Below, piece by piece: positions 6,870 through 62,149 of a DNA stretch of 64,000 nt (its first letter is position 1; every line of letters begins with the position of its first letter). The stretch is from Patescibacteria group bacterium. GTDB taxonomy: Bacteria > Patescibacteriota > Patescibacteriia > UBA2196. The translations under genes and the position numbers were made by a program. Below the pieces are notes generated by a model, which saw nothing but the letters and a program-made list of their open reading frames with translations, did not search any database and had not been told where the DNA came from. The stretch lies in the NCBI GenBank assembly GCA_028748975.1, contig JAQTPI010000006.1:366-64365 (forward strand). The letters are read 5' to 3'.

Positions 6870-6876
6870 AAGAAAA

Positions 6877-9133: not shown

Positions 9134-10288
9134 ATGTTAGAAATTAATCAACAAATCATCTCCCAAATTGAAAAAGCCCGTCAAATTTTGCTTGTTTTCA
9201 AGAAAAATTGGGAAACTGATTCCGTAGCGAGCGCCTTGGCTCTGTTTTTGTGGCTGAAAAAAACCGACAAACTGGTTGATGTCATGGCTGATGGCTTTAT
9301 AGCGCCGGCTGAATTAAAATTTTTACCCGCTCTTGAAGAAATCAAACCAGAACTTCATAATCTCCAAAAATTTGTTATCAACCTGAAATTAAATCAAAAC
9401 CAAGTTTCCGATTTTGCTTATGACACAGACGGCGATAATTTAAAAATTTTTCTCACGCCCAAAACCGGCGAATTTAAAGAAAGCGATGTCACGGCCGGCC
9501 AAAGCAATTTTCTTTATGATTTAATCATCACTGTGGACACGCCGGACCTTAATTCTTTGGGCGCTATCTATGAAAAAAATCTGGATTTCTTTTTCAACAC
9601 TCCTTTGATTAATTTTGACCACGCCACCGGAAACGAACATTTCGGACAAATTAATCTGATTGATGTCCGCGCCAATTCCACAGCTGAAATTATCTATCAA
9701 TTTCTCCATGACAATTTTTCTGCCAATTTTGATGAAAATATCGCCACCTGCCTGTTGGCGGGTATTATGGGCGCCACCACCGGTTTTAAAACAGGCAACA
9801 TTTCCCCGCAAACCCTGGGTATCACCTCTGAGTTATTGGCCCTTGGCTCCAACCGCGAACAAATTGTCCAAAATCTTTTTCACGCCAAATCACTTTCTGC
9901 TCTCAAACTTTGGGGCCGGCTTTTAGCCCGGCTCCAGCCTGACCGCGCCAATCATTTGGTCTGGTCGCTTCTTTCCTATGATGATTTCATCAAATCCGGC
10001 GCCACGCCCACTGATATCAAAGGCGCAGTCAAAGAATTAGTAACTTCTCTGCCACAGGCGGAAATTATTTTAATTTTGTACGAACAGCCCTCGGGCGAAG
10101 TCGGCACGGAAGCGCTCGCTGTCCACGGCCAGCTTTTCACTTCACCCAATTACAGCGCCCTGGATTTGGTGCGCGCCTTTCGCCCCGCCGGCGACAAAAC
10201 CTTTGCTCATTTTATTATTCCCGAAGCCAAACTCCTGGAGGCGGAGAAAATTATGATTGATGAAATCAGAAAAAAAATTGCGAATTAA
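9134..10288 (+). CDS. DHH-family phosphoesterase-like protein (second NrnA-like paralog)
   Basis: DHH-like motif FDHATGNEHFG and a Gly-rich DHHA1-like segment. 384 aa. Followed by a GC hairpin terminator at 10322-10362. Confidence 0.5.
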   Translation: MLEINQQIISQIEKARQILLVFKKNWETDSVASALALFLWLKKTDKLVDVMADGFIAPAELKFLPALEEIKPELHNLQKFVINLKLNQNQVSDFAYDTDGDNLKIFLTPKTGEFKESDVTAGQSNFLYDLIITVDTPDLNSLGAIYEKNLDFFFNTPLINFDHATGNEHFGQINLIDVRANSTAEIIYQFLHDNFSANFDENIATCLLAGIMGATTGFKTGNISPQTLGITSELLALGSNREQIVQNLFHAKSLSALKLWGRLLARLQPDRANHLVWSLLSYDDFIKSGATPTDIKGAVKELVTSLPQAEIILILYEQPSGEVGTEALAVHGQLFTSPNYSALDLVRAFRPAGDKTFAHFIIPEAKLLEAEKIMIDEIRKKIAN

Positions 10289-10405: not shown

Positions 10406-12586
10406 TTATTCGTTTTCTATCAAAATTTGATTGCTCTGCTCGCGCCACTGTGTCGCCGGAATAGTCGGATGTACTGTTTGTTTGCCATTCTTTGCCAAAT
10501 CAAATATCTCTTGCGGGGTATAACCGCCATAAATGAAAGCATTAACCACCGCGCCCCAGGAAGTATTTTTCAAGGTTAAAATCTTACCGCCATTCAGCGC
10601 TTTCAGTTCATCTCTTAAAACTATAGCTGCGTTCTCTTCAGTTTTCAAATCACCCAGTCGCGACAAACCGTAAATTTTATTCTTATTAGTGGAAATTTTC
10701 TTGGCTTCCGGCGAGAGCGGACTATAACCGCTTTTAATTTCCGTCAAATCATCAAAGCCGTCGCCATCAGTGTCTTCTTTGTTTAGATCCGTGCCATAAA
10801 GTCCTTCTTGAAAATCAGTCAGGCCATCGCCATCAGTATCAAGTTTGTAATCAACCGCTACTGTTGTTGGTGTTGATGTTTGTGTTGGTGTTGATGTTTG
10901 TGAACCAAGGCTTGGTTTAGTGCCCGAACATAAACTGTCTGCCACCACGCTGCCATTATTGTCTTGGCATCTGACTGCCCAAGAATAAGTGGTATTGGCA
11001 CTGGTACAGCTCTGGCTCGTTGTCGGCTTGGTGTCGAAACATAAACTGTCAGCCGCCGCGGCGCCGGTATTATCTTTGCAAGACACGCTTCTTGTTTGCG
11101 TACTATTGGTGCAAGTTGACCACGCACCCGAAGACCAGGAATAAGTCGTTGTGGTGGTGGTTGAACAACTTTGATTGGTTGTTGGTTTAATGCCGGAGCA
11201 TAAACTGTCAGCCACTGTGGCACTATTTTTATCTTTACAAACCACAGTTCTGGTTTGTGTGTTACTAGAACAGGTTGACCAATCACCCGAGGTCCAAGTA
11301 TAAGTAATTCCAACACCCAAAGTTGATCCTGCCACCCAACTTGTCCAATCAGAGCAACCATTAGAATTGCAGGCTTGAACTTTGGCGCTGTAAGAACGAT
11401 TGGAACTTAAAGGATTAAATGGCGCGCCATAATTAGCTGTGTTAAAAGAAGCGCCAGTTACTTTTTGGGCATCACCTACGCCATCTACTTGGACATAATA
11501 ATATGTGGCACTGCTGACTGCGTCCCAACTCCAAGTAAGGGAAGTGCTGGTTGAACCGGTAGATTTAAAATTGGTGGGTTTATCTGGTTTTGTTGCCCAA
11601 GTCGTCCCGGCCACCCAACTTGTCCAATCAGAACAACCATTAGAATTGCAGGCTTGAACTTTGGCGCTGTAAGAACGATTGGAACTTAAAGGATTAAATG
11701 GCGCGCCATAATTAGCTGTGTTAAAAGAAGCGCCAGTTACTTTTTGGGCATCACCTACGCCATCTACTTGGACATAATAATATGTGGCACTGCTGACTGC
11801 GTCCCAACTCCAAGTAAGGGAAGTGCTGGTTGAATCTGTGGTTTTCAAATTTGTAGGAGATGTAGGAATACTCTCTATTCTTGTCACTTGTTTCACATAT
11901 GAACTGTAAGCAGAACAACCGCCGGTGTTGCAGGCCCTGACTTTTGCCTGATAGTCTGTGTTTGGTTGTAATCCAGAAAAAGTAGCGGATTTAATGGAAG
12001 AAATATTGTCTTCGGTAATTTTTTGTGTTTCATCAAAACCGCCATAAAAAGGCCGGTCCTTAACAACCTCATAATACGTCGCGCCGGACTGCGCGCTCCA
12101 CACCCATTTGATGGAAGTGCTGGTATACTCATCTACTTTCAAATCCGTGGGAGTGGTAGGAGGAGTGGGCGTGGTTACCACTGGCGTTGCTGCCGCTGGC
12201 GTCTGGGCTATATCTGAACTGGCCGAAAAAACAGAACAAATGGCATTGCAAGCTTTAACCCTAGCTATGTATGCTGTATTCGGCTTTAAACCTTTAAATT
12301 CATAAGATGTGACTTTTATATCATTAGCATACAGTGTTTCTGAACCACCAACAGAATATTCCCCAAGATAAACTTCATATCTGCTCGCGCTGGCCACCAC
12401 ATTCCAAGTAAAAGAAATTGAAGTTTCTTTAATTGATTGTGGTTGTATTTGTGGCTTCCCTGGCGCTAGGGGCATAATAATTGCTTTAGCCGAATTTGCC
12501 AACAAAAAAAGCTGACCCGAAGCCAAAGCCAGCGTAAGAGCAAATATCAAAAGACCTTTAAAATTCTTTTGCGCGCGTTTTTTCAT
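10406..12586 (-). CDS. secreted surface protein with fibronectin type III-like repeats, Cys-rich modules and calcium-binding DxDxDG repeats
   Basis: Signal peptide MKKRAQKNFKGLLIFALTLALASG. Repeated ~93-aa FN3-like units, two of them identical. Repeated TWTSGDWSTCS...TQTRTVVCKD modules. DTDGDGLTDFQEG and DTDGDGFDDLTEI thrombospondin-type-3-like Ca-binding motifs. Confidence 0.7.
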   Translation of the reverse strand: MKKRAQKNFKGLLIFALTLALASGQLFLLANSAKAIIMPLAPGKPQIQPQSIKETSISFTWNVVASASRYEVYLGEYSVGGSETLYANDIKVTSYEFKGLKPNTAYIARVKACNAICSVFSASSDIAQTPAAATPVVTTPTPPTTPTDLKVDEYTSTSIKWVWSAQSGATYYEVVKDRPFYGGFDETQKITEDNISSIKSATFSGLQPNTDYQAKVRACNTGGCSAYSSYVKQVTRIESIPTSPTNLKTTDSTSTSLTWSWDAVSSATYYYVQVDGVGDAQKVTGASFNTANYGAPFNPLSSNRSYSAKVQACNSNGCSDWTSWVAGTTWATKPDKPTNFKSTGSTSTSLTWSWDAVSSATYYYVQVDGVGDAQKVTGASFNTANYGAPFNPLSSNRSYSAKVQACNSNGCSDWTSWVAGSTLGVGITYTWTSGDWSTCSSNTQTRTVVCKDKNSATVADSLCSGIKPTTNQSCSTTTTTTYSWSSGAWSTCTNSTQTRSVSCKDNTGAAAADSLCFDTKPTTSQSCTSANTTYSWAVRCQDNNGSVVADSLCSGTKPSLGSQTSTPTQTSTPTTVAVDYKLDTDGDGLTDFQEGLYGTDLNKEDTDGDGFDDLTEIKSGYSPLSPEAKKISTNKNKIYGLSRLGDLKTEENAAIVLRDELKALNGGKILTLKNTSWGAVVNAFIYGGYTPQEIFDLAKNGKQTVHPTIPATQWREQSNQILIENE
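11325..11850. repeat. near-perfect tandem duplication (2 x 279 bp) inside the FN3 surface-protein gene
   Basis: Segments about 11332-11565 and 11611-11844 are identical except for 1-2 nt. They encode a duplicated 93-aa unit. Confidence 0.85.
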
Positions 12587-12962: not shown

Positions 12963-13076
12963 TTCTGCCTCCTTTTTTAAATTATCAAAAAATAATAAAA
13001 TATTTTATATCCTTATATCTCCATATCTTTATTTCTAATATTTTTATTTCCCTTATTACTAGTTACTAGTTACTTA

Positions 13077-13890: not shown

Positions 13891-14376
13891 TTATTCGCCC
13901 AAATTCGACTGGGGCCCTTCGCTTTCGCTCAGGGCAGGCTCAGTAACTTTTATCTCTCCCTTCGCTTCCATCTCCCCATAAATCGCGCCCAAAACTCCAT
14001 TGACAAATTTGCCTGAAGATTCACCGCCAAATGTTTTGGCCATTTCAATCGCCTCATTAATCACCACTTTCGGCGGTACGTCGCTAGCGGCAAATTTCAA
14101 TTCATAAATTCCCAGGCGCAGCACGTTTCTGTCCACCACCGTAATTTTATCAAGAGGCCACTCCGGCGCGAATTTAATTATAATTTCATCAATCGCTTTG
14201 ATGTTTTTTACCACGCCTTTGACCAAACTTTCCACAAAAGAAATGTCTTCCAACCCGGCCGCCTGTTCTTTAATATTGTAAGTCAAAACCTCATTTAATT
14301 TTTCTGAATGGTGATTAAAATCCCACTCATAGAGCGTTTGCATGGCAATAGTTCTGGATAGGTGTCTGTTGGGCAT
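13891..14376 (-). CDS. nusB: transcription antitermination factor NusB
   Basis: NusB-like N-terminus ([13 protein letters not shown]) and all-helical body. Start moved to the internal ATG at 14376. The 45-codon upstream extension of the ORF-track call lies inside a MITE-like repeat (14386-14540). Confidence 0.75.
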
Positions 14377-14385
14377 TTTTCGGTA

Positions 14386-14540
14386 TAATCCTGAGCGAGG
14401 ACCCCGCATCTTGCGGGGGGACGAAGTCGAAGGATCCCCTGCGAACTTGGGCAGATAGTATTTTGTAAATCTTATCTTTCTGCCACGGGGTCCTTCGGTC
14501 CGATCCGCCAATCGGCGGACTATCGGACCTCAGGACAGGT
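14386..14540. mobile_element. MITE-like element (degenerate left TIR ATAATCCTGAG, right end CTCAGGACAGG)
   Basis: Internal sequence is about 80% identical to the element at 49623-49750 (GAAGGATCCCCTGCGAACTTGGG...CCACGGGGTCCTTCG). Confidence 0.55.
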
Positions 14541-14549
14541 TAAATAATT

Positions 14550-17226: not shown

Positions 17227-17582
17227 CTCTTCCTCCTGGCCTCTTGGCTCTTCAGTTTTTTTAATAACTCTTTCGACGGTTTTATTAAATCAAAAGGCAC
17301 TGATACTACCTGCGATAATTTCTGTTTTTTTTCAATAAAATCGCCCGTGGTTCTGTCATAAACCAAAAACTCAAAACCTTTGCCGCCACTGCCGGCAACA
17401 ACCCAAACAATTGTCTTGTCTTTGCCGAGAATAAAATCATCCGCTCGCAATTGCCGTTCCGCATGAAGCAAATCTAAAAAATCCCATAATTTTTCCATCT
17501 TTCCTCCTCTCGCTTTGCAGCTTTTAATTTTTGATGGTTCAATTGTCTCTCTTACCTTAGCACTCTTCAAAATCTTTGTCAA
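17223..17582 (-). CDS. hypothetical protein (119 aa)
   Basis: Intact ORF. First gene of an apparent 3-gene minus-strand operon. Confidence 0.4.
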   Translation of the reverse strand: MTKILKSAKVRETIEPSKIKSCKARGGKMEKLWDFLDLLHAERQLRADDFILGKDKTIVWVVAGSGGKGFEFLVYDRTTGDFIEKKQKLSQVVSVPFDLIKPSKELLKKLKSQEARRKR

Positions 17583-17626
17583 ACCCGATTTAAAGTGATA
17601 AAATATGTATGTAATTTTCTTTTTAT

Positions 17627-17816
17627 GTCATCCTGAAGCCGATGAATATCGGCTGAAGGATCCCGTGGCCGAAGAGATAAATAATAAAGATATAAAGAAA
17701 TAAGGATATAATAGGCTAGGTCGCCTATATCTTTATATCCCTATATCCTTATATCTTTTCACAAAACCGCGAGATCCCTCGGCTCAATACTTCCCAAAAA
17801 GGCCGCTCAGGATAAA
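17627..17816. mobile_element. MITE-like element (GTCATCCTGAAG ... CTCAGGATAAAC) containing the ATATCCTTATATC palindromic sub-repeat
   Basis: Same composite structure as 40731-40983. Immediately upstream of ftsK. Confidence 0.5.
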
Positions 17817-17825
17817 CTTCAGACC

Positions 17826-31474: not shown

Positions 31475-33445
31475 TTATTTTTTTGCCTTTTCTACAATTG
31501 GCCAGTTATCAATATGCTGGCCCATGGGATCGTTATAATTCGCCGATTCCAAAAAAACAATGCACATAATCAATAATGGCATGAAATCAAAACGGGCAAT
31601 CAATTGCGGTAAAACTTCTTCCATCTCGGCGCCCAGACAGGCATGGCCATCCTCAAATACGTGGGGAGCATTGTGTCCGCCTATCTTTTGCGTCAAATTA
31701 AAAAATCTGATTTGGTTGCAATCGCCATTAAGCGGAATAACAATCCGGAAAGCGCCAATCAAGTGTATTTGGTCTTTTCTCGGATGTTTGCAGAATAAAA
31801 TATCAGTATCCACTATTAACTGGTTTTTGATGCAGCTGACTTTTCTTATCTTTTCCAATTGCCGCATTTTTTCAAAATCAATGGCAAATTGCTTCCGGTA
31901 AACTCCGCCATCCTTCTTCTTGCCATCCGCCACCTCTTTTAAGGCATCGTATTTTCTAATCGCGGTCACCAGTTGGATTTGCAAACTGTTTACCCGGTTG
32001 GCCACTTCCGTCAATTCTTCCTTGGCGTCCTTAATAATTGACTCTTTATTTTGCAGACAAGTGTTGGCGTAGGCCTGTCCTTGTGCTGTCCGCATCTTGG
32101 CTTCCTGTTTTTGTCTTTCCGCTGTTGTGCTTGTTAAAAGACTGGCCACGGCTTGCATCAACTTTTTAAAAATCTTTTTATATTCTTCGTCCGCTCCCAA
32201 AATAGGGAAGGGAATATAAAGATTTCTGCCCGCTATGATTTGTCCGGCCTCTTGGCCGTCCTCATCATATATTATTTTCCCTTCGTTGGTAATCTGAAAA
32301 GATCCGCTTTTGGTTGGCAGAGGAATTCTCCAAAGCTGTTTGGGTGTTAAAAACCCCTGTCTGATGCTTTCCGTTGGCGCGGCAAAAAAATAAATATGAA
32401 ACATGTTGTCATAGCGCGGCAGGTCTCTCATCCGAAACTCGCCTCCGCCGTTATGCAAACAGATGCTCCGCCTAATCTTTGTCATTAATTCCCGGCTGAT
32501 GATGGGCGCGTAAACACGCCTGACTAATTCCAGCTCTCTGCTGTTAAAACCCCCAGAATCAATTACCATCGACCTGTCTATCTCTATGCCCTCCAGTTTT
32601 TTGGAGTCTTTCTTTTTTTCCGGTTCCACTGCTTTAACTGGCCGCCGAAACCTTTTCAGTTGGGAAAAAACTTCCGGCGCCACCACCGCTTCCAGAATTT
32701 TTCTAAAAATAGTAAGTTCTGACTCGCGGCCATAATGACACAGGTCGTGAAAAATATAAAGAGTGTTTTCGCCCACCAGCTCGGCCACCGCATATCTTTT
32801 GTCTCTAATCACTATGCCTTGGCCGCTGGGTGCGAAAGATTCATCATCACAAGCCACCCTTGTTCCCCAAATCTTCTCAGGTGTCTGGGTTTCCGTGTCA
32901 CCGCTTTCTGACGGGGCCGACCAAATGCGGATATGGAAAACATCGCCTTCAGCCGGGCTGGTATGTTTTCGATGCGGCACGCTGATGACAATTTCTGTTC
33001 CAATTTTTGGTAAAAGAATTTCTTTGGCTAATTTACGAAATCGGCTGCTGCCCTCGCCGTTCCAATCTTTGATTTTCACCTGGCAATCAGCGCCTCTGTC
33101 TTTTTTTGAATTATCAAAAATTACTCTTTGTATGATTCTTTTTTGTTCCTTGGTGATGGCCGAAGTGTTTTTCCACCATTTTAAATCATCGCCCTTGGCA
33201 TATTCCGGATCCAAACCGGTTATCTCCGCAATCTCCAGTTTAAAAACTCCGGTGATCTCGGTTGGTAATTCTGCCAAACTCATTTTTTTTAGGGCTCTTA
33301 ATCCCTGGCTTAACTGTGTTTCGTCCAAAACAATGCCTTTTTTACTGCCCATCTCAAAGTCGGCAAAAATGACCTTTTGGGCATTTAAAGCCGCTTTTTT
33401 ACTCTCGTCAATAGCTGGCAAAAAATAATTTCTCACCACTTCCAT
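31475..33445 (-). CDS. large paralog 1 (656 aa): internal duplicated domain, coiled coil, C-terminal UBC/E2-like domain with putative catalytic Cys (GHACLG)
   Basis: RBS AAGGAGG. C-terminal FRIVIPLNGD...IRFFNLTQKIGGHNAPHVFEDGHACLG...LLIMCIVFLESANYNDP aligns with the UBC-fold pattern F.L.I.FP.DYP...HPN...G.ICLDIL...LLSICSLL.DPNPDDP. Confidence 0.6.
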   Translation of the reverse strand: MEVVRNYFLPAIDESKKAALNAQKVIFADFEMGSKKGIVLDETQLSQGLRALKKMSLAELPTEITGVFKLEIAEITGLDPEYAKGDDLKWWKNTSAITKEQKRIIQRVIFDNSKKDRGADCQVKIKDWNGEGSSRFRKLAKEILLPKIGTEIVISVPHRKHTSPAEGDVFHIRIWSAPSESGDTETQTPEKIWGTRVACDDESFAPSGQGIVIRDKRYAVAELVGENTLYIFHDLCHYGRESELTIFRKILEAVVAPEVFSQLKRFRRPVKAVEPEKKKDSKKLEGIEIDRSMVIDSGGFNSRELELVRRVYAPIISRELMTKIRRSICLHNGGGEFRMRDLPRYDNMFHIYFFAAPTESIRQGFLTPKQLWRIPLPTKSGSFQITNEGKIIYDEDGQEAGQIIAGRNLYIPFPILGADEEYKKIFKKLMQAVASLLTSTTAERQKQEAKMRTAQGQAYANTCLQNKESIIKDAKEELTEVANRVNSLQIQLVTAIRKYDALKEVADGKKKDGGVYRKQFAIDFEKMRQLEKIRKVSCIKNQLIVDTDILFCKHPRKDQIHLIGAFRIVIPLNGDCNQIRFFNLTQKIGGHNAPHVFEDGHACLGAEMEEVLPQLIARFDFMPLLIMCIVFLESANYNDPMGQHIDNWPIVEKAKK

Positions 33446-33464
33446 GCTTCTTCCTCCTTTTAAG

Positions 33465-33541
33465 CTGGGTTTTTAAGGTTCATCTTCACTGTTTTTAGTG
33501 AATAGCTAACCTTAGCAAAACTAAAAAACCTTGTCAAGTAA
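33465..33541 (-). promoter_or_regulatory. promoter/leader module of paralog 1
   Basis: Minus strand: cTTGACA-N17-TAAGGT, hairpin TTCACT-N6-AGTGAA, GAACCTTAAAAACC box, AAGGAGG, ATG. Confidence 0.55.
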
Positions 33542-33601
33542 TAAAATAAATAAAAAACGGTCTGCTTTGCCAGCAGGCCGTTATCTTGAAAACATTTATT
33601 T

Positions 33602-35563
33602 TTATTTTTGTTCCGTAACTATTGGCCAGTCCGCCACCCGCTCTCCGGCGCTCGCCTGGCCCTCTGCCGTTTCCAGAAAAATAAGACACATGGTTATCAA
33701 TGGTCCAAAATCAAACCGGGCGATTAATTGCGGTAAGATTTCTTGCAGCTGGCTGCCAAAGTAAGCCTGGCCATCCGGCGCCACGTTGGGAGCATTAAAT
33801 TCGTTAACCCGCCGTGTCAGATTAAAAAATCTGATATCCTCGCAATTGCCCCAAAAAGGGATAAAAATCTGGAAAGCGCCAATCAGGCGTGTTTCTTTTT
33901 TGCTGTAGAAAAGAGTGTTGGTCTCCACTATAAGACAATCCGGGGTGAAAGTAATCTGCCTTATCTTTTCCAGTCGCCCCATTTTCTCAAAATCAGCGCT
34001 AAACTTCTCTTGGTCGCCACCCTTTCTTTTGCCCTCGGTTGCTTCCTTCAGCGCATCATGCTTTCTGATGGCCGCTATCAACTGTGTTTGAAAATTTTTG
34101 ATTTGCCTGGTAATATCCACAAACTCAGCCGCGGCATCTTTCTTGATCAAATCTTTATACTGCCAACAAATGGCGGCATAAGCTTTTCCTTTGGCTGCCC
34201 GCATTTCTTCTTCCCACTGCTGCCTTTCCGCTGCCGTACTGGTAAAAAGCCTGGCCACTTCTGCCATTAAACAGGTAAAAATCCGTTGCAATGTTTTTTG
34301 GTCGGAAAATAAAAAAAATGGAATATAAAGATTTCGGCCGCCGATAATTTGCCCGACTCTTTGTCCAGCATCATCATAAACCATTACCCCTTCCCTGGTA
34401 ATCGGGCAAGGGTTATTCCCGGCCGGCAAACTAATGCCCCATAATTTATTTGATGAAGAAAATTGTCTGCCCGCCATTGAATTGGTAAAAAATATATGAA
34501 ACACCTCGTCATAAAAAGGTAATGGCTGTTGTCTTATGCTCCTATTTTTATGCAGGCAAACGCCGCGCTTAATTTTTGCCATTAATTCCCGCGCGATAAT
34601 TGGAGCATAAACTTTTCTAGCCAAAGCGCATTCTTCTGAGCTAAACCCCGGTAATTCCATCGTCAGTGTTTTATTTATATCTATTTTTTTGCTTTCCAAT
34701 TCTTTTGATTTTGTTTCTTTTTTTACTGGAGCTGGCCGCCGAAACCTTTTCAGTTGGGAAAAAACTTCCGGCGCCACCACCGCTTCCAGAATTTTTCTAA
34801 AAATAGTAAGTTCTGACTCGCGGCCATAATGACACAGGTCGTGAAAAATATAAAGGGTGTTTTCGCCCACCAGCTCGGCCACTGCGTAGTTGTTTGTCTT
34901 GTCTTTAATAACTAGGCCAAGGCCGCTCGCTGGAAAAGATGCGTCACCGCAAGCCACTTCTGTTCCCCAGATAGTTGGGGGTGTGCGAACCTCTCTGGAT
35001 CCGCTCTTCAATGGTGCCGACCAGATGTAGATATAAAAATTATCATCTGCAACCGGTTCTTTTTGGTCTCCATGTGGCACGCTGATAAAAATGTTTGTTT
35101 TAATTCTGGGCCAAAGAATTTCTTCGGCTAGCTGGCAATAATCTTCGCTGTTACTGCGTCCGTCCCAATGATCAACTGTCACAAAACCCGACCCATCCTC
35201 CTCTTCTATTGTTTCTTCTTTTTTCAAACTCTCACCAATCTTTTCCTGTAAAAATCTCCGTTGCTCTGCCGCCAGGGTGTAGCTATTTTTGCACCACCTC
35301 AAATCATCGCCTTGGGCATATTCCGGATCCGCCCCTGTGATGTCAATGGTCAAAAGCTTGAAAGCTCCCTCAATCCCGGTGGACAGTTCCGCCAAGATTG
35401 CTTTGTTTAAAGCTCTCAATCCCTGAAGTAATTGGGTTTCGTCCAAAATAATGCCCTGTTCGCCTCCCAGTTCAAAATCGGCAAAAATGACCTTGTGGGC
35501 GTTTAAAGCTGTTTTTTGTGCCGCATTGACAGCTGCTAAAAAATAGCTTCTGACAACTTCCAT
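33602..35563 (-). CDS. large paralog 2 (653 aa): same architecture, E2-like active-site Cys/His replaced (DGQAYFG)
   Basis: 52-aa block identical to paralog 1. C-terminal domain is present but lacks the Cys and the NYNDP motif. Confidence 0.6.
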   Translation of the reverse strand: MEVVRSYFLAAVNAAQKTALNAHKVIFADFELGGEQGIILDETQLLQGLRALNKAILAELSTGIEGAFKLLTIDITGADPEYAQGDDLRWCKNSYTLAAEQRRFLQEKIGESLKKEETIEEEDGSGFVTVDHWDGRSNSEDYCQLAEEILWPRIKTNIFISVPHGDQKEPVADDNFYIYIWSAPLKSGSREVRTPPTIWGTEVACGDASFPASGLGLVIKDKTNNYAVAELVGENTLYIFHDLCHYGRESELTIFRKILEAVVAPEVFSQLKRFRRPAPVKKETKSKELESKKIDINKTLTMELPGFSSEECALARKVYAPIIARELMAKIKRGVCLHKNRSIRQQPLPFYDEVFHIFFTNSMAGRQFSSSNKLWGISLPAGNNPCPITREGVMVYDDAGQRVGQIIGGRNLYIPFFLFSDQKTLQRIFTCLMAEVARLFTSTAAERQQWEEEMRAAKGKAYAAICWQYKDLIKKDAAAEFVDITRQIKNFQTQLIAAIRKHDALKEATEGKRKGGDQEKFSADFEKMGRLEKIRQITFTPDCLIVETNTLFYSKKETRLIGAFQIFIPFWGNCEDIRFFNLTRRVNEFNAPNVAPDGQAYFGSQLQEILPQLIARFDFGPLITMCLIFLETAEGQASAGERVADWPIVTEQK

Positions 35564-35584
35564 GTTTCTGCCTCCTTTTCCATT

Positions 35585-35660
35585 AAATTTTTAAGGTCTG
35601 TTTGCTTCACTCTACTGGTGAATATTTCAGCTTAGCAAAACTTATCCCGCCTGTCAAGTT
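35585..35660 (-). promoter_or_regulatory. promoter/leader module of paralog 2
   Basis: TTGACA-N17-TAAGCT, hairpin TTCAC...GTGAA, CAGACCTTAAAAATT box, AAGGAGG. Confidence 0.55.
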
Positions 35661-35795
35661 TATTTTCTAAATAAAAATATAACAAAAAATAAAAAAACGG
35701 TCCAATAATTCGCCAGTTAGCGAATCGGACCGTTTGTTGAATTTTGAATTTTTATTATTTTTCGCTCAGTTTAAATATTTAAATCCAGACGAATC

Positions 35796-37790
35796 TTAGC
35801 TGGTTTTGCGTTTTCCTTTGTCCGCTTCCTCTTGTCCTGTTTTTACCAGCGGCCATTGATCAACATGTCTGCCGATATCATCAAGGTTCGCTGATTCCAA
35901 AAAAATAATGCACATAATAACAATTGACGTGAAATCAAAACGAGCCATCAGCTCTGGTATAATTTCATGCATCTCCCTGCCCAGACAGGCATGGCCGTCA
36001 GCATATACGTGGGGAGCGTTCATTCGGCTGTCATGCGCATTAATCAGCTGTGTCAAGTTAAAAAATCTGAGATCATTGCAGCTGCCCTTAAAAGGAATAA
36101 CGATCTGAAAAGCGCCGATCAGGCGTATTTCTTTATTAGTAGGGTGCTGGTAATAAAGAATATCAGTCTCCACAATCAGGTGGGTCTTGGTGAAAGAAGC
36201 CCATCTTATCTTGTCCAGTTGCCCTATTTTCTCAAATTCAGCGGCAAATCTCTCTTGATATAATTCTTTGCCCTCCTTTTTGTCCTCAACTACTCCTCTT
36301 AAAATATCCTGCCTTCTGTTGGCCGCTACCAATTGCGTTTGCAGATTTTTTATTTGGCTACCAGTCTCAGTCAGTTCCTGGCCGGCAGTTTCTTTTTTAA
36401 TTTTGGCAAGAATCGCCTCTTTGTAGTTTTGGCAAACACGAGCATAAGTTATTTTTTGAATTGCCATCAGCCCGGCTTCCCGCTGCTGCCTTTCGGCCGC
36501 CGTGCTCTTTAAAAGCCAGTTTACTTCTTCCAATAAACGAATAAAAAACTCTTTGTTTTCTTTGGTCTCAAAAGTTAAATAAAAAGGAAGGTAGAGATTG
36601 TTGCCATTAATGAGCCAAGCCACGACTTGGCCTTGGTTGTCATAAATCGCCCTTCCCTTGTTTAAGATCACTAGGGAGTTCTTGGGGTTATCCAATTTTA
36701 TGTTGATTCCCCAAGGCGTCGGTGGACTCAATGGCGCGTTTTTAATTGCCAGTCCCGGCGAGGCTCCCAAAAAAACATGGAACATATTATCATAAAAAGG
36801 CTGAGTTTTTTTGCCAAATTCCCCGCCATGTAAACACACGTTTCTTTTAATGACTGGGGTCAGCACCTGTTTAACTATCTTGGCTGCTTCTCCGTAAAGT
36901 CTTTCAAAAAAAATTCGTGAAGAAAAATCATTTGCGCCAGCTATGAAAACTTCTTGATCCAACCAATCAGCTGGTTTTTTTTCTTTTTCTTTCACTGCCA
37001 AGGCCTCAATAATAGCCATGGTTCTGGCGATTCCCTCTTCAAATATTCTTAACTCGTTTTCATCCCCGTTGTGGCTACAAATATCATGATGAAAATACAA
37101 ATTATTCATGCCGATTAATTCGGCTACCGCGTAGCCCGTGGCTTCATCCACCAGCGAAACTCCCAGACCACTGTCCACCGTACCAATACCACGATCTGAC
37201 ACTTCAATTCCCCAAATACTCTCCGGGGGACTCTTTGTGTTATGGCTTCCGCAACTGGGAGCGGCATGAAGGTGGATATAAAAATCCGAACCCAAAATCG
37301 GATCTGTCCAACCAGATTGTTTATGGATCTGGACCTTCTTTTTTATTTTTGGAGTTATGTTCTTCATTGCCAGCCGGGTAAAAGAATTGTCATCCGGCCA
37401 TTTCCGCCAATCTTGCCGAGCCGCCTTAATCCAATTTATTTCTCCTTCTCGCTCTTGTTCCGGCGGACATAAATAATTAAATAATAATTCCTTTGCCGCC
37501 TCCGGAATCTTCAAAATATTTTTGTACCAGTTCAATTCCTCTCCGGCTTCATAACCAGCATCGGGTTCCATCGGAACTAACAGAGTTTGATAAACTCCTC
37601 TCGCCCCAGTTGGTTGTTCCCAAAGTATGGCTTTTCGCAGCCGCAGTAAACAATGTTTAATTTGTGTCTCCTCAACCAAAATTTTTTGTCCATCTCCTGG
37701 TGTGACTCTGGAAAATTTCACGCCCTGCTGGGTTAAAAATGCCTCTTCCTCTCTGGTTACCATTAAAAGGAATTTTTTTGGTTCTTCCAT
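35796..37790 (-). CDS. large paralog 3 (664 aa): divergent member with intact E2-like motif NAPHVYADGHACLG...FLESANLDD
   Basis: Colinear with paralogs 1 and 2 at about 35-40% identity outside the conversion tract. Same promoter/leader module upstream. Confidence 0.6.
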   Translation of the reverse strand: MEEPKKFLLMVTREEEAFLTQQGVKFSRVTPGDGQKILVEETQIKHCLLRLRKAILWEQPTGARGVYQTLLVPMEPDAGYEAGEELNWYKNILKIPEAAKELLFNYLCPPEQEREGEINWIKAARQDWRKWPDDNSFTRLAMKNITPKIKKKVQIHKQSGWTDPILGSDFYIHLHAAPSCGSHNTKSPPESIWGIEVSDRGIGTVDSGLGVSLVDEATGYAVAELIGMNNLYFHHDICSHNGDENELRIFEEGIARTMAIIEALAVKEKEKKPADWLDQEVFIAGANDFSSRIFFERLYGEAAKIVKQVLTPVIKRNVCLHGGEFGKKTQPFYDNMFHVFLGASPGLAIKNAPLSPPTPWGINIKLDNPKNSLVILNKGRAIYDNQGQVVAWLINGNNLYLPFYLTFETKENKEFFIRLLEEVNWLLKSTAAERQQREAGLMAIQKITYARVCQNYKEAILAKIKKETAGQELTETGSQIKNLQTQLVAANRRQDILRGVVEDKKEGKELYQERFAAEFEKIGQLDKIRWASFTKTHLIVETDILYYQHPTNKEIRLIGAFQIVIPFKGSCNDLRFFNLTQLINAHDSRMNAPHVYADGHACLGREMHEIIPELMARFDFTSIVIMCIIFLESANLDDIGRHVDQWPLVKTGQEEADKGKRKTS

Positions 37791-40716: not shown

Positions 40717-40730
40717 ATTATTCTTTTTGT

Positions 40731-40983
40731 GTCATCCTGAGCGAAGGTCCGATGGACATCGGACCGGAGTCGAAGGATCTCGTTGTTTTATAAAAAAATA
40801 TAAGGATATAGAGATATAAAGATATAAGCGACCAGCCTGTTATATCCTTATTTCCTTATATCTTTATTATTTATCGCTTTGGCCACGGGATTCCCTGCCT
40901 CGCCTGACGCTCGCCTCGATTCGGCGAAGCGGGCGAGTCAAGGCGGGCTTCCTCTCCCGAGTACTCGGGATCGTCAGGATGAC
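40731..40983. mobile_element. complete MITE-like element (~253 bp) with terminal inverted repeats GTCATCCTGAG / CGTCAGGATGAC
   Basis: The two ends are reverse complements. The interior carries the ATATAAGGATATA palindromic sub-repeat and a GCGAAGCGGGCGAG sub-repeat seen elsewhere. Confidence 0.6.
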
Positions 40984-40998
40984 AACTACTTAAAAAGT

Positions 40999-47088: not shown

Positions 47089-48120
47089 ATGAAAATTTTA
47101 GCTATTGAAACCTCCTGTGATGAAACTTCTGCCGCCGTGCTCAATCTTGAGCGCGGCCAGTTTAATTTGCTAAGTAATATTGTTTCCTCTCAAGTTAAAA
47201 TTCACGCTAAATTCGGCGGCGTGGTGCCGGAAGTGGCGGCACGGATGCAAATGGAAATGATTCTGCCGGTGATTGATGAATCCTTAATCGCTGCTAATAT
47301 AAAATTAAAAAATATTGATTATTTAGCTGTCACTTATGGTCCGGGTTTAATTACTTCTCTCACTGTTGGTGTGGAAACTGCCAAATCTTTGGCCTTTGCC
47401 CTAAAAAAAACACTCATCCCCACCAACCATCTGGCTGGCCATCTCTTAGCAAATTTTCTACCCAACAAAAAAATTACTGACATAAAATTTCCAGCACTTG
47501 GTCTGATTGTTTCCGGCGGACACACTCTTTTGGTTTTAATGAAAAACGAATCCAATTATAAAATTATTGGTGAAACCCTGGATGATGCCGTGGGCGAGGC
47601 CTTTGATAAAGTCGCCAAAATTTTAAATCTTGGCTATCCCGGCGGCCCCATTATTTCCAAACTAGCCAATAATGGCAATTCCGTCGCTTTTAATTTTCCG
47701 CGCCCGATGCTGAACTCTGGCGATCTTAATTTTTCTTTTTCTGGTCTGAAAACAGCCGTGTTCTACACATTAAAACATAAAAACATTAAAACATTAAAAC
47801 AAAAAGAAATAAACGACGTTTGTGCTTCATTTCAGGTGGCATGCGTCGATGTTTTAACTATTAAAACATTACGAGCGCTCCAAATTCATCAACCAAATTC
47901 ATTTCTCTTGGGCGGCGGTGTAGCTGCCAATCCCACCTTGCGCCAGCGCCTTCAAGAACAAATTAATAAAAATTTTCCTAAAATCAAAATTTTCATTCCC
48001 GAACTGCGTTTTACCGGCGATAACGCGGGAATGATCGCCGCCGCAGGATATTTTCAAGTTAAAAAAAGTAAATTCGCTAATTTCAAAAAACTGAAAGCCA
48101 ACCCAAATTTATCACTTTAA
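47089..48120 (+). CDS. tsaD: tRNA N6-adenosine threonylcarbamoyltransferase TsaD (Kae1/YgjD)
   Basis: MKILAIETSCDETSAAV, HLAGH metal-binding and GGGVAAN motifs. 343 aa. Confidence 0.9.
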   Translation: MKILAIETSCDETSAAVLNLERGQFNLLSNIVSSQVKIHAKFGGVVPEVAARMQMEMILPVIDESLIAANIKLKNIDYLAVTYGPGLITSLTVGVETAKSLAFALKKTLIPTNHLAGHLLANFLPNKKITDIKFPALGLIVSGGHTLLVLMKNESNYKIIGETLDDAVGEAFDKVAKILNLGYPGGPIISKLANNGNSVAFNFPRPMLNSGDLNFSFSGLKTAVFYTLKHKNIKTLKQKEINDVCASFQVACVDVLTIKTLRALQIHQPNSFLLGGGVAANPTLRQRLQEQINKNFPKIKIFIPELRFTGDNAGMIAAAGYFQVKKSKFANFKKLKANPNLSL

Positions 48121-48250
48121 TAAATTACAAATCACAAGCACCAAAATACAAACAAATCTCAAATATCAATAACCAAATTACAAACGCGACGGTTTAGGAT
48201 TTGAGATTTGGTGCTTGGAATTTGTTTGTTATTTGGAATTTGGTGCTTGG
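48110..48250. repeat. large hairpin element, copy 2 (between tsaD and tsaE)
   Basis: Left arm ATTACAAATCACAAGCACCAAAATACAAACAAATCTCAAATATCAA. Right arm is its imperfect reverse complement. Confidence 0.55.
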
Positions 48251-48261
48251 TGCTTAAAAAT

Positions 48262-48729
48262 ATGCTCTCTCATTCCCCCTCCCAAACCAAAACCATTGCC
48301 AAAAAACTTGCCTCTCAGTTAAAACCCGGCGCGGTTTTGGCTTTGGTCGGTGATCTCGGCGCCGGCAAAACCCATTTTGTCAAAGGTTTGGCTGAATATT
48401 TTGGCATTAAAAAAAATATTACTTCCCCGACTTTCGTTTTATTGAAAATTTATCCAATAACTAAAGTTTATCCCGAGCGAGCGGAGCGAGCCGAGGGATC
48501 TCGTAATAGAAATAAAATTAAAAAATTAATTCACCTTGACTGCTATCGCCTCAGTCATCCTGACGAACTTCTCGCCATCGGCTTCCGGGAATTTTTACAA
48601 GATAAAAATTGTTTGGTTGTAATTGAATGGGCCGACAAAATCAAAACTCTCTTGCCGAAAAATACCACTTGGCTAAAATTCAGTTTAGGCCAGAAAGAAA
48701 ATGAAAGAAAAATTGAAATCAAAAAATAA
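48262..48729 (+). CDS. tsaE: tRNA threonylcarbamoyladenosine biosynthesis protein TsaE (YjeE), with a ~14-aa in-frame insertion derived from a MITE-like element
   Basis: P-loop GDLGAGKTHFVKG. Start placed at MLSHSP, because upstream is a hairpin repeat. Residues YPERAERAEGSRNR are encoded by the repeat at 48466-48507. Confidence 0.75.
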   Translation: MLSHSPSQTKTIAKKLASQLKPGAVLALVGDLGAGKTHFVKGLAEYFGIKKNITSPTFVLLKIYPITKVYPERAERAEGSRNRNKIKKLIHLDCYRLSHPDELLAIGFREFLQDKNCLVVIEWADKIKTLLPKNTTWLKFSLGQKENERKIEIKK

Positions 48730-49612: not shown

Positions 49613-49622
49613 ACTCTTCCTG

Positions 49623-49750
49623 GTGTCATCCTGAGGCCGATATCACATCAGCCGAAGGATCCCCTGCGAACTTGGGGAGGTAGTATTTTTTACGCTTTTC
49701 CCATTTGCCACGGGGTCCTTCGTCCCGAGTAATCGGGACTCAGGACAGGT
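49623..49750. mobile_element. MITE-like element with GTCATCCTGAGG left TIR
   Basis: See 14386-14540. Lies between yraN and yebC. Confidence 0.55.
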
Positions 49751-49760
49751 TGTAAAAAAA

Positions 49761-50480: not shown

Positions 50481-50641
50481 TTTTGTTGGTTGTCATCCCG
50501 AGGAGTCACGCGACGAGGGATCTCGTAGTAACCCGCTCGGAATATTAAACTAAAGCTAATTTAACCTTATCATTTTAAAACACAAAAATCAAATAAAAAA
50601 GCGGGGCAAACTGAATTGCCACCGCCGTGTTATTTTAACTC

Positions 50642-53246: not shown

Positions 53247-53566
53247 CCCAATAGTTTATCCCGAGCGACCCCGAGTACTTGGGGGAGTCGAGGGATCTCG
53301 TGGTTTGGTAAATTTTATAATAAAGATATAGGGATATAAGGATATATAAAAACAAGAAAAGCCCGCCCGAACGACTGCTGTCGTTCAGTCGGGCGGGCAA
53401 GAAAAAAGTAAAAAACATTTTTGTAAATACCTCACGATCGTGAGGTATTTACAAAATTAAAAATAAAAAAAGTTTGGTTATTTTCGCGGCCGCAATTTTA
53501 ATCAAACTTTTTTAATTTAAAAAAAACAGCCCCAAAGGAATCGTCCTTCGGGGCTTTTTGAAAATT

Positions 53567-54313: not shown

Positions 54314-55522
54314 TTAAATTTTTTCACTAAGTTCTAAGTTTATAAATCTCCTCTTTCCCACCTGTATCACCATTCTGTTTTTAATTTCAATTTCTGCCTG
54401 CCAGTCTTTGATGACTTCGTCATCAATTTTTACCCCGCCTTGTTCAACCAAACGTCGTGCTTCAGCTTTACTGGATACCAATTTTGTATTAACCAATAAG
54501 TTCAAAATATTTTGAACTCTGGTTTTAACTCTAACTTTCTCCATTTCCACTGGCTTTTCTTTTTCGCTGAAAACTTTAATAAAATTTTCCCGCGCTTTTT
54601 TGGCTTCCTTTTCTGAATGCAATAATTTTACAACTTCCAAAGCCAAATCCAATTTCAAATCGCGCGGATTCTCGCCTTTCTCCATTCTCTTTTTAATTTT
54701 TCCCAAATCCGCTTTGGTTAAAATTTCAAAACCCGGCAAAATCAAACCATCAGGCCAAGACATTACTTTACCGAATTTATCATTCGCCGAATCAGTCAAG
54801 GCCGCCATGTTGCCTTCGGTTTTGCCCATTTTTTGCCCGCTGGCATCAGTCAAAAGTTTCACCCCAATCACAAATTTTTCTTTGTTTTTCAATGCCTTCA
54901 TCAAATCGCGTCCGGCCAAAATATTGAAAAGCTGATCATTGCCGCCCAGTTCTCCATCCACATCCATGGCGACACAGTCGTAACCCTGCATCAGAGGATA
55001 TAAAAATTCATGAAGATAAATCGGTTTGTTTTCTTTCATGCGCTTGTCAAACATGTCGCGCGCGAGCATCTGCTGCACCGTAAAATTGGAAGCCAAGTTC
55101 ACCACCTCTTCAAACTTAAGTTTGGAAAGCCATTTGCTATTAAATTCTACCCTCACTCCGCCCCAGCCAAATTTCAAAACCGGCGCCAATTGTTTTTTAT
55201 AACCGCTCAAATTTTTCTTTACTTCTTTTTTAGTCAATTGTTTTCGCGCCGCGCTTTTGTCCGTTGGGTCGCCAATCATACCGGTAAAATCTCCCATTAA
55301 AAGAATTGCCTCGTGCCCCAAATCCGCGAATTCTTTCAGTTTTAAAATCGTTACCAAATGCCCGAGGTGTAAATTTGGCCCGGTCGGGTCAATTCCCAGA
55401 TACATTTTCAGTTTTTTGCCGGACATTAATTTTTCCCGCACAAATTCCTTAGATGGCAAAACCGTCTCCACCCCGCGGGAGAGAAACTCGTCAATTCGTT
55501 TTGGATCGGTGATAATTTTCAT
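54314..55522 (-). CDS. tyrS: tyrosine--tRNA ligase
   Basis: HIGH motif (HLGHLV), KMSKS-like QKMGKTEGN, and C-terminal S4 domain. Start trimmed to MKIITDPKR, because the upstream codons lie in the MITE TIR. Confidence 0.9.
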   Translation of the reverse strand: MKIITDPKRIDEFLSRGVETVLPSKEFVREKLMSGKKLKMYLGIDPTGPNLHLGHLVTILKLKEFADLGHEAILLMGDFTGMIGDPTDKSAARKQLTKKEVKKNLSGYKKQLAPVLKFGWGGVRVEFNSKWLSKLKFEEVVNLASNFTVQQMLARDMFDKRMKENKPIYLHEFLYPLMQGYDCVAMDVDGELGGNDQLFNILAGRDLMKALKNKEKFVIGVKLLTDASGQKMGKTEGNMAALTDSANDKFGKVMSWPDGLILPGFEILTKADLGKIKKRMEKGENPRDLKLDLALEVVKLLHSEKEAKKARENFIKVFSEKEKPVEMEKVRVKTRVQNILNLLVNTKLVSSKAEARRLVEQGGVKIDDEVIKDWQAEIEIKNRMVIQVGKRRFINLELSEKI

Positions 55523-55532
55523 AATCAGCAAT

Positions 55533-55681
55533 GTCATTCCGAGCCACGCGCCAGCGGGCGAGGAATCTTGTAGAATACTAACAAATTTTTATTAAATTAT
55601 TGGTTTTATTGAATTATTGGATTATTATTCTCTTTACTCACGAGATCCTTCGTCCTCGCTCTCGCTCGTCCTCAGGATGAC
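55533..55681. mobile_element. complete MITE-like element (~150 bp) with TIRs TGTCATTCCGAG / CTCAGGATGACA
   Basis: The ends are reverse-complementary. Sits between divergent tyrS and the ROK kinase gene and extends both ORF-track calls. Confidence 0.6.
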
Positions 55682-55742
55682 ACGCCCTTACTCTTTCTGC
55701 TATAATACTATTATAATTCATTACCCTAATTTATTCAAATTT

Positions 55743-59258: not shown

Positions 59259-59398
59259 CACCGCAGTGTCATCCTGAGCAACAGCGAAGGATCTCATTTT
59301 AAATTATAAAGCCGGGCCGACGAATGTCGGCCCGGCCTTTTGTTTTATTTATTATTATTCGGATACATTCGGAAAAAATTCGTACGGTATTCGGGAAG

Positions 59399-60824: not shown

Positions 60825-61038
60825 CTGCCGCCTTAAAAAAGTTTTGGTATAAAAGCGAGCTGAGTCGGAACGATTTTTGACCGCAGTCAAAAAAATTTTG
60901 CTTCTGTCTGACGCAGTTCCGCCGAGTTGAGCGCAACGAGGCGGAACAAGGAGTTAACAAAATTAGTGACGACGAGGCCGCTTTTGTCAAAACTTTTTTA
61001 CAGCGGCGCTTTTGGCGCCACCTTTATAAAAAGGTGGC
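60825..61038. repeat. structured ~215-bp intergenic element, copy 2 (between dnaN and the apt-MTAP gene)
   Basis: See copy 1. Confidence 0.7.
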
Positions 61039-61048
61039 TAAAAGAAAT

Positions 61049-62149
61049 TTACTGTTTAATCGGCATCACCAAATACATATATTTTTCCTCGCCCGCCGGA
61101 CGAAAAACAATCGGATTAGCCGCGGAATTGATGAAAATTCTGGTCTTATTGGAATTAATATTATTTAAACCATCAAGTAAAAACTTATAATTAAACACCA
61201 CCACCACATTGCCGCCTTTTTGCTCAGTTTTAATTTTAATGGTATTTTCGCCCACTTGGCTGTTAATCGCCTTAATCACCACCGCGGCATTAATAAATTC
61301 CAAGGTCACATCAAAAATTCCGGTCTTGGCAAACAAACTGGCCGCTTTCACCGCCTTAATTAATTCATTTGTTTCAATTTCCACCTCGGTGTTAAAATTG
61401 GCCGGCACCACCTGTTTATAATCCGGGTAATCACCTTCAATCAGGCGTGAAATCACCACTGTTTCCTCAAAATCAAACTTGACCTGGGTGTCTTCAAAAT
61501 CAATGGTAAAAAATTCATTTTCCATATCCAACATCACCCGCGAGAGTTCTTGGACTGATCTTAAGGGCACAATAATTTTTTCTTCTTTCACCTCTTCTTC
61601 TAATTCTATAATTTTCTCCGCCAAGCGGTAGCTGTTGGTAGCGGCCAAAATCAGATTTTTACCTTTAAAATTAAATAAAATTCCGGTTAATTCCGGCCGC
61701 GCTTCGTCAAAAGACGCGGCAAAAACCACCGCATTAAGTGCTTGTTTAAATTCGTTTAGTTTTATTTTATATTTCTTGCCGCCTTTCACTTCCGGAATTA
61801 AAGGATAATCATCAGCCGGATTGGTTTTGATTTTTGTCTGCCAATCTTCGCTCATCACATTTAATTCACCACTCACCTCCTCTAAATCAATGTTTTTATC
61901 ACTATTAATTAAATTAATATAGTCGGTGATAATTTTGGCCGGCACCGTAATTCGGCCTTCGCCCTCCACCTTGCCCCTGATTTGGGTTTTGACTCCAATT
62001 TCCAAGTTGGTAGCCGAAATTTCAATATTTCCTTTTTCCGCCTTGAATAAAATATTATTCAAAATCGGCAAGTTAAAATTTTTGCCGGTTAAATGAGAAA
62101 CCTTATTCAAACCTTTGATTAAATTTTCTTGTTTGCAAATTATTTTCAT
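61049..62149 (-). CDS. dnaN: DNA polymerase III beta sliding clamp
   Basis: Three-domain beta-clamp length (366 aa), MKIICKQENLIKGLN start, and position downstream of dnaA. Confidence 0.9.
   Translation of the reverse strand: MKIICKQENLIKGLNKVSHLTGKNFNLPILNNILFKAEKGNIEISATNLEIGVKTQIRGKVEGEGRITVPAKIITDYINLINSDKNIDLEEVSGELNVMSEDWQTKIKTNPADDYPLIPEVKGGKKYKIKLNEFKQALNAVVFAASFDEARPELTGILFNFKGKNLILAATNSYRLAEKIIELEEEVKEEKIIVPLRSVQELSRVMLDMENEFFTIDFEDTQVKFDFEETVVISRLIEGDYPDYKQVVPANFNTEVEIETNELIKAVKAASLFAKTGIFDVTLEFINAAVVIKAINSQVGENTIKIKTEQKGGNVVVVFNYKFLLDGLNNINSNKTRIFINSAANPIVFRPAGEEKYMYLVMPIKQ

Follow-up and report, generated by a model that had tools for sequence, protein, structure and literature searches.

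The tsaE gene of an uncultured Patescibacteria bacterium (candidate phyla radiation, CPR) carries, in frame and at the permissive tip of a β-hairpin of its product, what is very probably an inserted singlet of a REP/REPIN-like palindromic repeat. The insert lies at 48466-48504 on the forward strand of the 64-kb stretch of DNA analyzed here (the window), runs from GTTTATCCCGAG to CGAGGGATCTCGT, and measures 39 nt or 13 codons (VYPERAERAEGSR). Its limits follow from a gap in the corresponding gene of a relative (contig L001, DNA alignment A2) and from a covariance model of the repeat (R1). A first-pass annotation of the same DNA had described a repeat-derived in-frame loop insertion at this place, and both the match to R1 (E = 3.8e-7) and the empty site in L001 (protein P0002) bear this out. 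The accompanying term "MITE fragment" needs revision. The segment is indeed repeat-derived, but R1 recognizes it as a complete unit, the family resembles REP singlets and REPIN doublets, and neither a target-site duplication nor a parent insertion sequence was found. The sequence itself was as described, with the start moved by one position: the 41-mer quoted in that annotation begins at 48467, and 48466 is the G of GTTTATCC.

By profile, motifs and predicted fold, the product of the host open reading frame (48262-48729, +, 155 aa, ATG at 48262 and end at 48729) is TsaE, the ATPase subunit of the t6A threonylcarbamoyl-transfer complex. The Pfam profile PF02367 (TsaE/YjeE) matches this ORF with E = 5e-35 (120.7 bits; cut-off 26.6), and the translation is identical to the NCBI MAG protein MDD5290143.1, in agreement with the original assignment. 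The protein agrees with alignment A1 in each of its 34 invariant columns, which include the intact GDLGAGKT (Walker A, GxxGxGKT), SPTF, HLDCYR (HxDxYR), and EWA (EW) motifs. An AlphaFold model based on 25 homologs (pLDDT 86, pTM 0.82) aligns in Foldseek with TM scores of 0.74-0.77 (∼0.75) to PDB entries 5np9, 6n9a_E, and 1htw, which are solved structures of TsaE, YdiB, and YjeE. The intact motifs and the literature on this protein suggest that the insert-bearing TsaE has retained its function. TsaE is essential in bacteria generally (PMC6009658), and we assume that the same holds for the host organism. The partner gene tsaD (47089-48120, +; PF00814) stands immediately 5' of tsaE, and this gene order is conserved in relatives; those found by TsaE are Patescibacteria (Kuenen-, Buchanan-, and Falkowbacteria, among others). 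The spacer between the two genes (48118-48264) contains a long AT-rich hairpin of its own (MFE -37.9 kcal/mol, z = -4.2, equaled by 0 of 200 shuffles), and low-complexity TAATTTC and AGTAATC arrays that resemble the repeats of this spacer occur in further spacers of the window.

Alignment with orthologs, proposed earlier as a check, delimits the insert. The closest TsaE (P0002, encoded on L001 with the gene order conserved) shares 87% identity with the window protein outside the loop and is shorter by 15 residues, and in alignment A2 the L001 gene shows a clean gap opposite the element. Rather than carrying the same residues without similarity to the repeat, this ortholog lacks them altogether. 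A phmmer comparison with TsaE from Thermotoga maritima splits the match in two and leaves query residues 69-85 (17 residues) unaligned. The insert can therefore be counted as 13 codons (the element), as 15 residues relative to the closest ortholog, or as 17 relative to the T. maritima protein. Its translation as ITKVYPERAERAEGSRNRNKIK between the segments SPTFVLLK and LIHLDCYRL, as first reported, is correct. Comparison of the filled with the empty site revealed no target-site duplication; the flanks are ACTAAA and AATAGA.

The recommended structure prediction places the segment in a low-confidence loop at a hairpin tip. Strands 61-65 and 88-93 of the AlphaFold model flank this loop, and pLDDT falls below 50 at residues 73-82. 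The insert is thus predicted to form a disordered loop at the tip of the β-hairpin between SPTF and HxDxYR. In the crystal structure of Thermotoga TsaBDE, TsaE makes its contacts through S61PTFT, helix 90-100, and loop 115-120, and ATP is sandwiched against TsaD (PMC6009658). The insertion point corresponds approximately to T. maritima residues 73-75. SPTF opens this hairpin, and the residues lie at its distal end, a tip that is absent from the TsaB/TsaD contact elements listed for the Thermotoga protein. By this homology the insertion point is probably solvent exposed and distant from the TsaB/TsaD interface. TsaE would tolerate the insert because the tip faces away from the ATP site and lies outside the listed contacts.

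The first-pass annotation had also pointed to the element at 53253-53305, and this match holds: the 14-mer TTTATCCCGAGCGA (48467-48480) and the 13-mer CGAGGGATCTCGT (48492-48504) recur exactly in the copy at 53255-53301. The numbers of matches expected in dinucleotide shuffles with up to two mismatches allowed are 0.48 for TTTATCCCGAGCGA and 0.32 for CGAGGGATCTCGT. Model R1 was built from 13 other copies in the window, with the tsaE copy left out. Its match to 48464-48507 spans the whole model (positions 1-54 of 54) and scores 35.6 bits (E = 3.8e-7), so that membership of the tsaE copy in the family is not in doubt. The tsaE copy contains the characteristic features of the family: a basal stem of five base pairs between ATCCC (48470-48474) and GGGAT (48495-48499), a tandem G·A step (GA/GA), and a closing G-C pair. 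GAG (48475-48477) comes directly after the 5' arm, and the 3' arm stands between CGA (48492-48494) and the conserved tail CTCGT. In place of the apical hairpin found in long-form copies, the window copy contains a 9-nt tandem duplication at 48475-48492 (GAGCGAGCG followed by GAGCGAGCC), which reads ERA-ERA in the protein. The tsaE copy on contig L002 retains an intact apical palindrome (GTCCCGAGTACTCGGGAC), and the copy on L084 also keeps its apical hairpin. By the covariance model the window copy is a complete hairpin unit, of which the apical part alone is degenerate. Folding of this copy is no better than that of shuffled sequences (RNA z = 0.06, DNA z = 0.79), and the same is true of the energy of the 28-nt core. 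Therefore, the structural claim rests on covariation and not on energy.

A loose pattern search followed by R1 located about 17 copies of the family in the 64-kb window, 15 of them outside coding sequence. Several follow directly after stop codons, as is the case for the RNase Y gene, ruvC, and a PBP gene. The copies share a common layout with a 5' tail (T)GTC, a 5-bp stem (ATCCT, ATCCC, ATTCC, or GTCCT), GAG, a variable middle that usually forms its own hairpin, CGA, the complementary stem, and the tail CTCGT. In the 13 copies compared without the tsaE copy, 78 of 78 stem cells are paired, with changes on both sides in four of the six pairs; no shuffled or register-slid control comes close. 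The G·A/A·G step that separates the stem from the closing G-C pair does not vary. We found no Rfam family over any copy at either gathering or permissive thresholds. A hammerhead-like reading of the motif CUGAnGA...GAA was rejected: only two helices are present, there is no three-way junction, and the motif does not occur in all copies.

The closest intergenic relative of the tsaE insert follows the ruvC stop codon (53252-53304, +); it has the GTTTATCC 5' arm and an apical hairpin that hardly differs from the one in the tsaE insert of L002. A second copy of the GTTTATCC type (17766-17819, -) forms the left end of a composite unit of ∼260 nt with an inverted right-end copy at 17624-17669. The copy at 40728-40786 (+) forms the left end of a homologous unit. 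These two units (17560-17819 and 40728-40985) consist of inverted end repeats around an AT-rich inverted repeat of GATATAAGG-type 8-mers. Together with the units at 14382-14542 (rpmF/nusB spacer; R1 and doublet comparison), 49622-49752 (upstream of yraN and homologous to the former), and 55530-55684 (spacer between tyrS and a ROK-family gene; R1), they make up five inverted, REPIN-like doublets of 130-260 nt with inverted TGTCATCCTGAG at their ends. R1 also matches solo copies immediately downstream of the RNase Y gene (2013-2068, -) and in an intergenic region (50489-50529, +), and a solo copy of the short form just past the PBP gene stop (59265-59300, +). Another short-form copy, identified by R1 and by ORF read-through, makes up the C-terminal end ALSESEG of NusB (13906-13941, -). 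None of the 31 window ORFs compared with Pfam matched a transposase; most belong to housekeeping families and eight are without a match. A parent insertion sequence was not seen in the window either.

Several further observations concern the same DNA. Arrays of GATATAAGG-type 8-mers also follow solo copies (1976-1992 and 53325-53341) and occur at 13003-13019. NusB (nusB 13891-14376, -) has a 29-residue C-terminal tail beyond its Pfam domain, which ends at residue 132 of 161, and this tail over the 13906-13941 copy is the second coding overlap in the window. The longest ORF for tyrS (54314-55537, -) starts with an ATG (55535-55537) inside the 5' arm of a repeat copy (55530-55574, +; CAT of GTCATTCC); the true start may lie slightly inside the gene at the next in-frame ATG at lower coordinate. 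Two noncoding-looking copies of ∼230 nt (6654-6887 and 60825-61056) are ∼92% identical and have no Rfam match. Their predicted fold is closed and has several hairpins (consensus -89.7 kcal/mol), the differences between the two copies are mostly compensatory and fall in one stem, and one internal hairpin shows the tandem-GA design with a CCGCC/GGCGG stem. This pair is a candidate for an ncRNA or a larger MITE. Other repetitive regions include three tandem paralogous ORFs of ∼655 aa (31475-37790, -) with 70-98% DNA identity in blocks, the first of them without a Pfam match, and a fibronectin-III repeat protein (10406-12586, -) with 279-nt tandem DNA repeats (95% identical units, 11317-11857).

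The TsaE loop is also occupied in other genomes. Two independent assemblies (L002 and L003) contain a 51-nt copy of the same family with its apical palindrome intact at the identical position. In L084 the copy is shifted by three codons, L086 has variant arms, and L019 contains a further variant. In L085 and its relatives P0024 and P0033 the family copy is reversed and read as RDPSS. Among 77 Patescibacteria species loci, 12 (∼16%) encode a SPTF-HxDxYR loop of at least 33 residues, with a mode of 27-29. Loops of at least 36 residues occur in 47 of the best 119 protein matches, a number that is possibly inflated, as the query itself bears the insert. Where DNA is available, long loops have a GC content of 0.45, compared with 0.31, and form mostly hairpins (mean z -2.3) with L028, L012, L004, and L010 as strong cases. 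The expansions consist mostly of GC-rich hairpins that belong to several families and occur in either orientation. The TsaE loop is thus a recurrent insertion site of several unrelated palindromic elements.

The neighboring gene provides a comparison. TsaD proteins from 44 of the same loci contain 11 insertions of at least eight residues at approximately six sites, and several of these look repeat-derived; in-frame repeat insertion therefore seems to be a general feature of element-rich Patescibacteria. Expanded loops at the TsaE tip occur in 16% of loci compared to at most 7% for any single TsaD site. The tip is then simply the one permissive site in a very compact protein, used somewhat more often than single sites in TsaD. 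In two genomes (L012 and L028) both proteins carry repeat-like inserts, which reach 34 aa in TsaD and 38 extra aa in TsaE, and the TsaE insert of L028 comprises three hairpins. Such double inserts suggest genome-wide bursts of in-frame insertion. A simple regex scan of 87 related loci returned 71 matches, 19 of them from the window, compared to 42 in a shuffled control. With this count near background, the expansion of the family appears specific to the window lineage and a few relatives.

The distribution of filled (window, L002, L084) and empty (L001, L087) alleles conflicts with the tree of the tsaE backbone, where the window clusters with L001 and L002 clusters with L087, so that each pair joins a filled and an empty allele; identity is 87% for members of one pair and 69% across the two pairs. 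Despite this divergence, the filled window and L002 alleles share the insertion point and the common flanks YPI(T/F)K and N(R/K)NK. The neighboring genes for TsaD and YraN give a star-like tree for the filled and empty genomes. There may have been one old insertion followed by recombination or loss, or there may have been repeated insertion; the star-like tree fits either history. At third codon positions, filled alleles agree to 83-88% within the element and to 50-60% beyond it, which is not predicted by plain neutral vertical inheritance. This difference fits young or converted copies, or a constraint at the nucleotide level.

Based on these observations, we propose that a REP/REPIN-like singlet inserted, in frame and stop-free, at the tip of the SPTF/HxDxYR β-hairpin of TsaE and would now be translated as a disordered, charged loop of 13 residues. 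Mobilization would most likely involve an ssDNA hairpin handled in trans by a Y1 (RAYT/IS200-like) transposase, or else a replication-linked process. Element-rich genomes would supply many attempts, and selection would remove those inserts that fall elsewhere in the compact 140-residue TsaE. We infer neutrality of the tsaE insert, its expression as part of the protein, and this route of mobilization. Against this proposal stands the absence of any hallmark of transposition, as the search found neither a target-site duplication nor a GTAG/CGTC tag, and none of the 31 window ORFs scanned matched a transposase.

One alternative is that insertion at this site was directed, with the 5' end of the element targeted by its similarity to the native K-V/I-Y-P codons (AAAxTTTATCC). 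Such targeting would give rise to identical insertion points in different tsaE backbones, as are seen in the window and L002, where position and flanks coincide in backbones that are only 69% identical. The native sequence AAAATTTATCC (K-I-Y-P; 48445-48455, +) is repeated directly, at 10 of 11 positions, 18 nt downstream by AAAGTTTATCC (48463-48473) at the 5' edge of the element. In L002 the agreement is 11 of 11, so that both alleles contain the 10-11-nt direct repeat AAA[AG]TTTATCC, and L084 contains a duplicated TTTATCC. Furthermore, the GTTTATCC arm occurs only in tsaE copies and in the two intergenic window copies at 53252 and 17766. This distribution and the edge repeat hint that microhomology guides targeting, or that the tsaE copy has served as a source. 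However, the inserts of other lineages lie at different codons of the loop, some of them reversed, and the star-like neighbor trees leave room for a single ancestral insertion with recombination or loss. A chance match is needed for only about three bases beyond the arm of the family. We regard directed insertion as unlikely.

A broader proposal would make the pan-bacterial hairpin TGTCATCC-Y-GAG...CGA-R-GGATCTCGT an undescribed mobile element that acts as ssDNA. It would be stabilized by tandem sheared G·A pairs and GNA loops, its unpaired tails would mark a dedicated enzyme, and K-V-Y-P microhomology would draw it to the TsaE tip. Copies inside genes would continue to act as sources of further copies; the GTTTATCC arm found in tsaE is also present at 53252 and 17766. 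In the 1990s Hirao and Yoshizawa reportedly characterized d(GCGNAGC) mini-hairpins and 5'-YGAR-3' tandem sheared G·A motifs in biophysical work that did not concern mobile elements. The commonest short form of the present family, CCTGA-GCGAAGC-GAAGG, contains a d(GCGNAGC) mini-hairpin flanked by Y-GA-R steps. This similarity suggests that the short-form structure forms in single-stranded DNA as well as in RNA; the folding parameters used here do not capture the stability bonus. We consider this combined proposal quite unlikely. If true, the TsaE loop would be a natural reporter of element activity across Patescibacteria.

It is also conceivable that the insert has been co-opted, such that the charged loop or the mRNA or DNA hairpin fulfills a function as a new contact, as a processing or pausing site, or as a recombination signal, and is kept by selection. 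This idea is consistent with the high third-codon identity of the element arms (83-88% compared to 50-60% for the host gene), with the occupation of the TsaE loop in many lineages, and with the conservation of the unpaired tails TGTC and CTCGT across phyla. On the other hand, the inserts vary in family, length, orientation, and position within the loop, close relatives do without one, and the loop is predicted to be disordered. The window copy lacks the apical hairpin and shows no excess stability, and the conserved arms could equally result from young or independent insertions or from gene conversion by other copies. Selective retention appears very unlikely.

An artefact of assembly or binning, in which a repeat copy was misjoined into the tsaE gene of a MAG, has to be considered since the gene derives from a single MAG contig and repeats are a classic source of misassembly. 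This explanation is extremely improbable, given that the insert is exactly 13 codons long and stop-free with colinear flanks, and that the same kind of insert occurs at the same site in independent ENA, Logan, and JGI assemblies. Finally, the short length of the element is all that would favor a chance resemblance between a native TsaE loop and the repeat, and this possibility is effectively refuted by the gap in the DNA alignment with L001 and the R1 match (E = 3.8e-7), together with the exact 14-mer and 13-mer, a closest ortholog devoid of these residues, and a loop GC content of 0.6 compared to 0.31 in relatives.

Beyond the window, an exact-pattern scan of metagenome contigs returned at least 120 contigs with the core motif, spanning GC contents of 32-75%. 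The commonest form among the matches listed is the 28-mer TCATCCTGAGCGAAGCGAAGGATCTCGT. The 125 metagenome copies among the matches listed have 5' TG and 3' CTCGT as their conserved ends and nothing beyond; the GTAG/CGTC tag is absent from them, and no base preference follows CTCGT (AG in 5 of 125). Named plasmid matches come from Cyanobacteriota, Bacteroidota, and Acidobacteriota, with a weak match in Acinetobacter (E = 0.3), and include copies under annotated MmeI-type and PglX genes. A Planktothrix agardhii plasmid (NZ_LR882964.1, 13955-16987), for example, contains an MmeI-type R-M gene with in-frame VILSE, AQNDK, and RDSSQAQNDK in both orientations. Counts of copies within ORFs by stop-free length are unreliable in high-GC contigs; we used only cases confirmed by Pfam in contigs of lower GC. 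Such in-frame copies exist in PolA from the related genome L084 and in UvrA, MurG, MnmA (two copies in two frames), and a CofH/MqnC-type radical-SAM enzyme. The polA copy of L084 (9084-9136, -, in polA 6948-9797) reads CHPEDSRQQSEDEGSRS and falls inside the 5'-3' exonuclease SAM-fold domain. Contigs with an in-frame core motif are L192, L147, L135, L124, and L090, and a reversed core motif was observed in a stop-free metagenome ORF that by eye looks prepilin peptidase-like. Across genes, copies of the family are read in different frames and orientations.

Literature searches by insert peptide and DNA motif returned nothing relevant, and searches combining CPR with palindromic insertions returned no earlier description. 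The family and its Patescibacteria hosts appear to be undescribed in the searchable literature. The kind of insertion is already known, since intragenic REPs and RPEs have been reported. The present case extends in-frame palindromic selfish DNA in housekeeping genes, classically a feature of Rickettsia, to the reduced genomes of Patescibacteria (CPR). For annotation and phylogenetics it calls for caution, in that an expanded loop of a CPR protein may consist of repeat DNA instead of reflecting lineage-specific function, and may be homoplastic. The acceptance of 10-40 extra residues by one loop of a 140-residue ATPase is useful for tagging and engineering, and the variability of this loop is relevant to drug-target work that treats TsaE as conserved. 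With a core motif that is widespread, outside Rfam, and inside UvrA, MurG, MnmA, PolA, and R-M genes, a systematic description may be worthwhile.

Comparison with known repeat systems helps to classify the element. REPs, short imperfect palindromes of 20-40 nt, are found mainly between genes and often just 3' of one; those with the GTAG/CGTC tag occur as singlets and inverted dimers, and some are found in frame in genes of several phyla (Di Nocera et al. 2013, PMC3733652). Among the genes with intragenic REPs, uvrA and others for replication and repair stand out, and related species sometimes share the insertion site (PMC3733652). The window family is similarly a short, imperfect, multicopy palindrome that is mostly extragenic, close to the 3' ends of genes, and present as singlets and inverted doublets. 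Unlike GTAG/CGTC REPs, it has no such tag, its tails are 5' TGTC and 3' CTCGT, its stem contains the tandem G·A step, and its hosts are Patescibacteria. The five inverted doublets with spacers, and singlets that look like remnants, recall REPINs and BIMEs (Bertels & Rainey 2011, PMC3116915). In contrast to REPINs, two of the window doublets hold a long AT-rich GATATAAGG inverted-repeat core, and no RAYT was found among the 31 ORFs scanned.

RPEs, in the part of PMC10969869 that recounts Ogata et al. 2000, are palindromic selfish DNA inserted in frame in housekeeping genes, with inserts predicted to be compatible with the fold and surface-exposed. The same account gives their length as ∼100-150 bp and describes a conserved peptide of ∼45 residues. 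The window family shares with them the in-frame location in housekeeping genes at predicted exposed sites, but differs by its shorter length (30-57 nt; 39 nt for the tsaE copy), by the absence of a conserved peptide, and by a sequence family that showed no relation to RPEs in the tests made. Coxiella QMITEs and other bacterial MITEs are non-autonomous elements of 100-400 bp with terminal inverted repeats and target-site duplications that occasionally cause in-frame fusions or C-terminal extensions (PMC5896051, PMC10969869). The NusB tail is a C-terminal extension of this type. Unlike MITEs, however, the tsaE site has no target-site duplication, and at 39 nt the tsaE copy is below the MITE size range of ∼50-500 bp, into which only the doublet units of 130-260 nt fall. 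By these comparisons, the element in tsaE is REP/REPIN-like rather than a demonstrated MITE.
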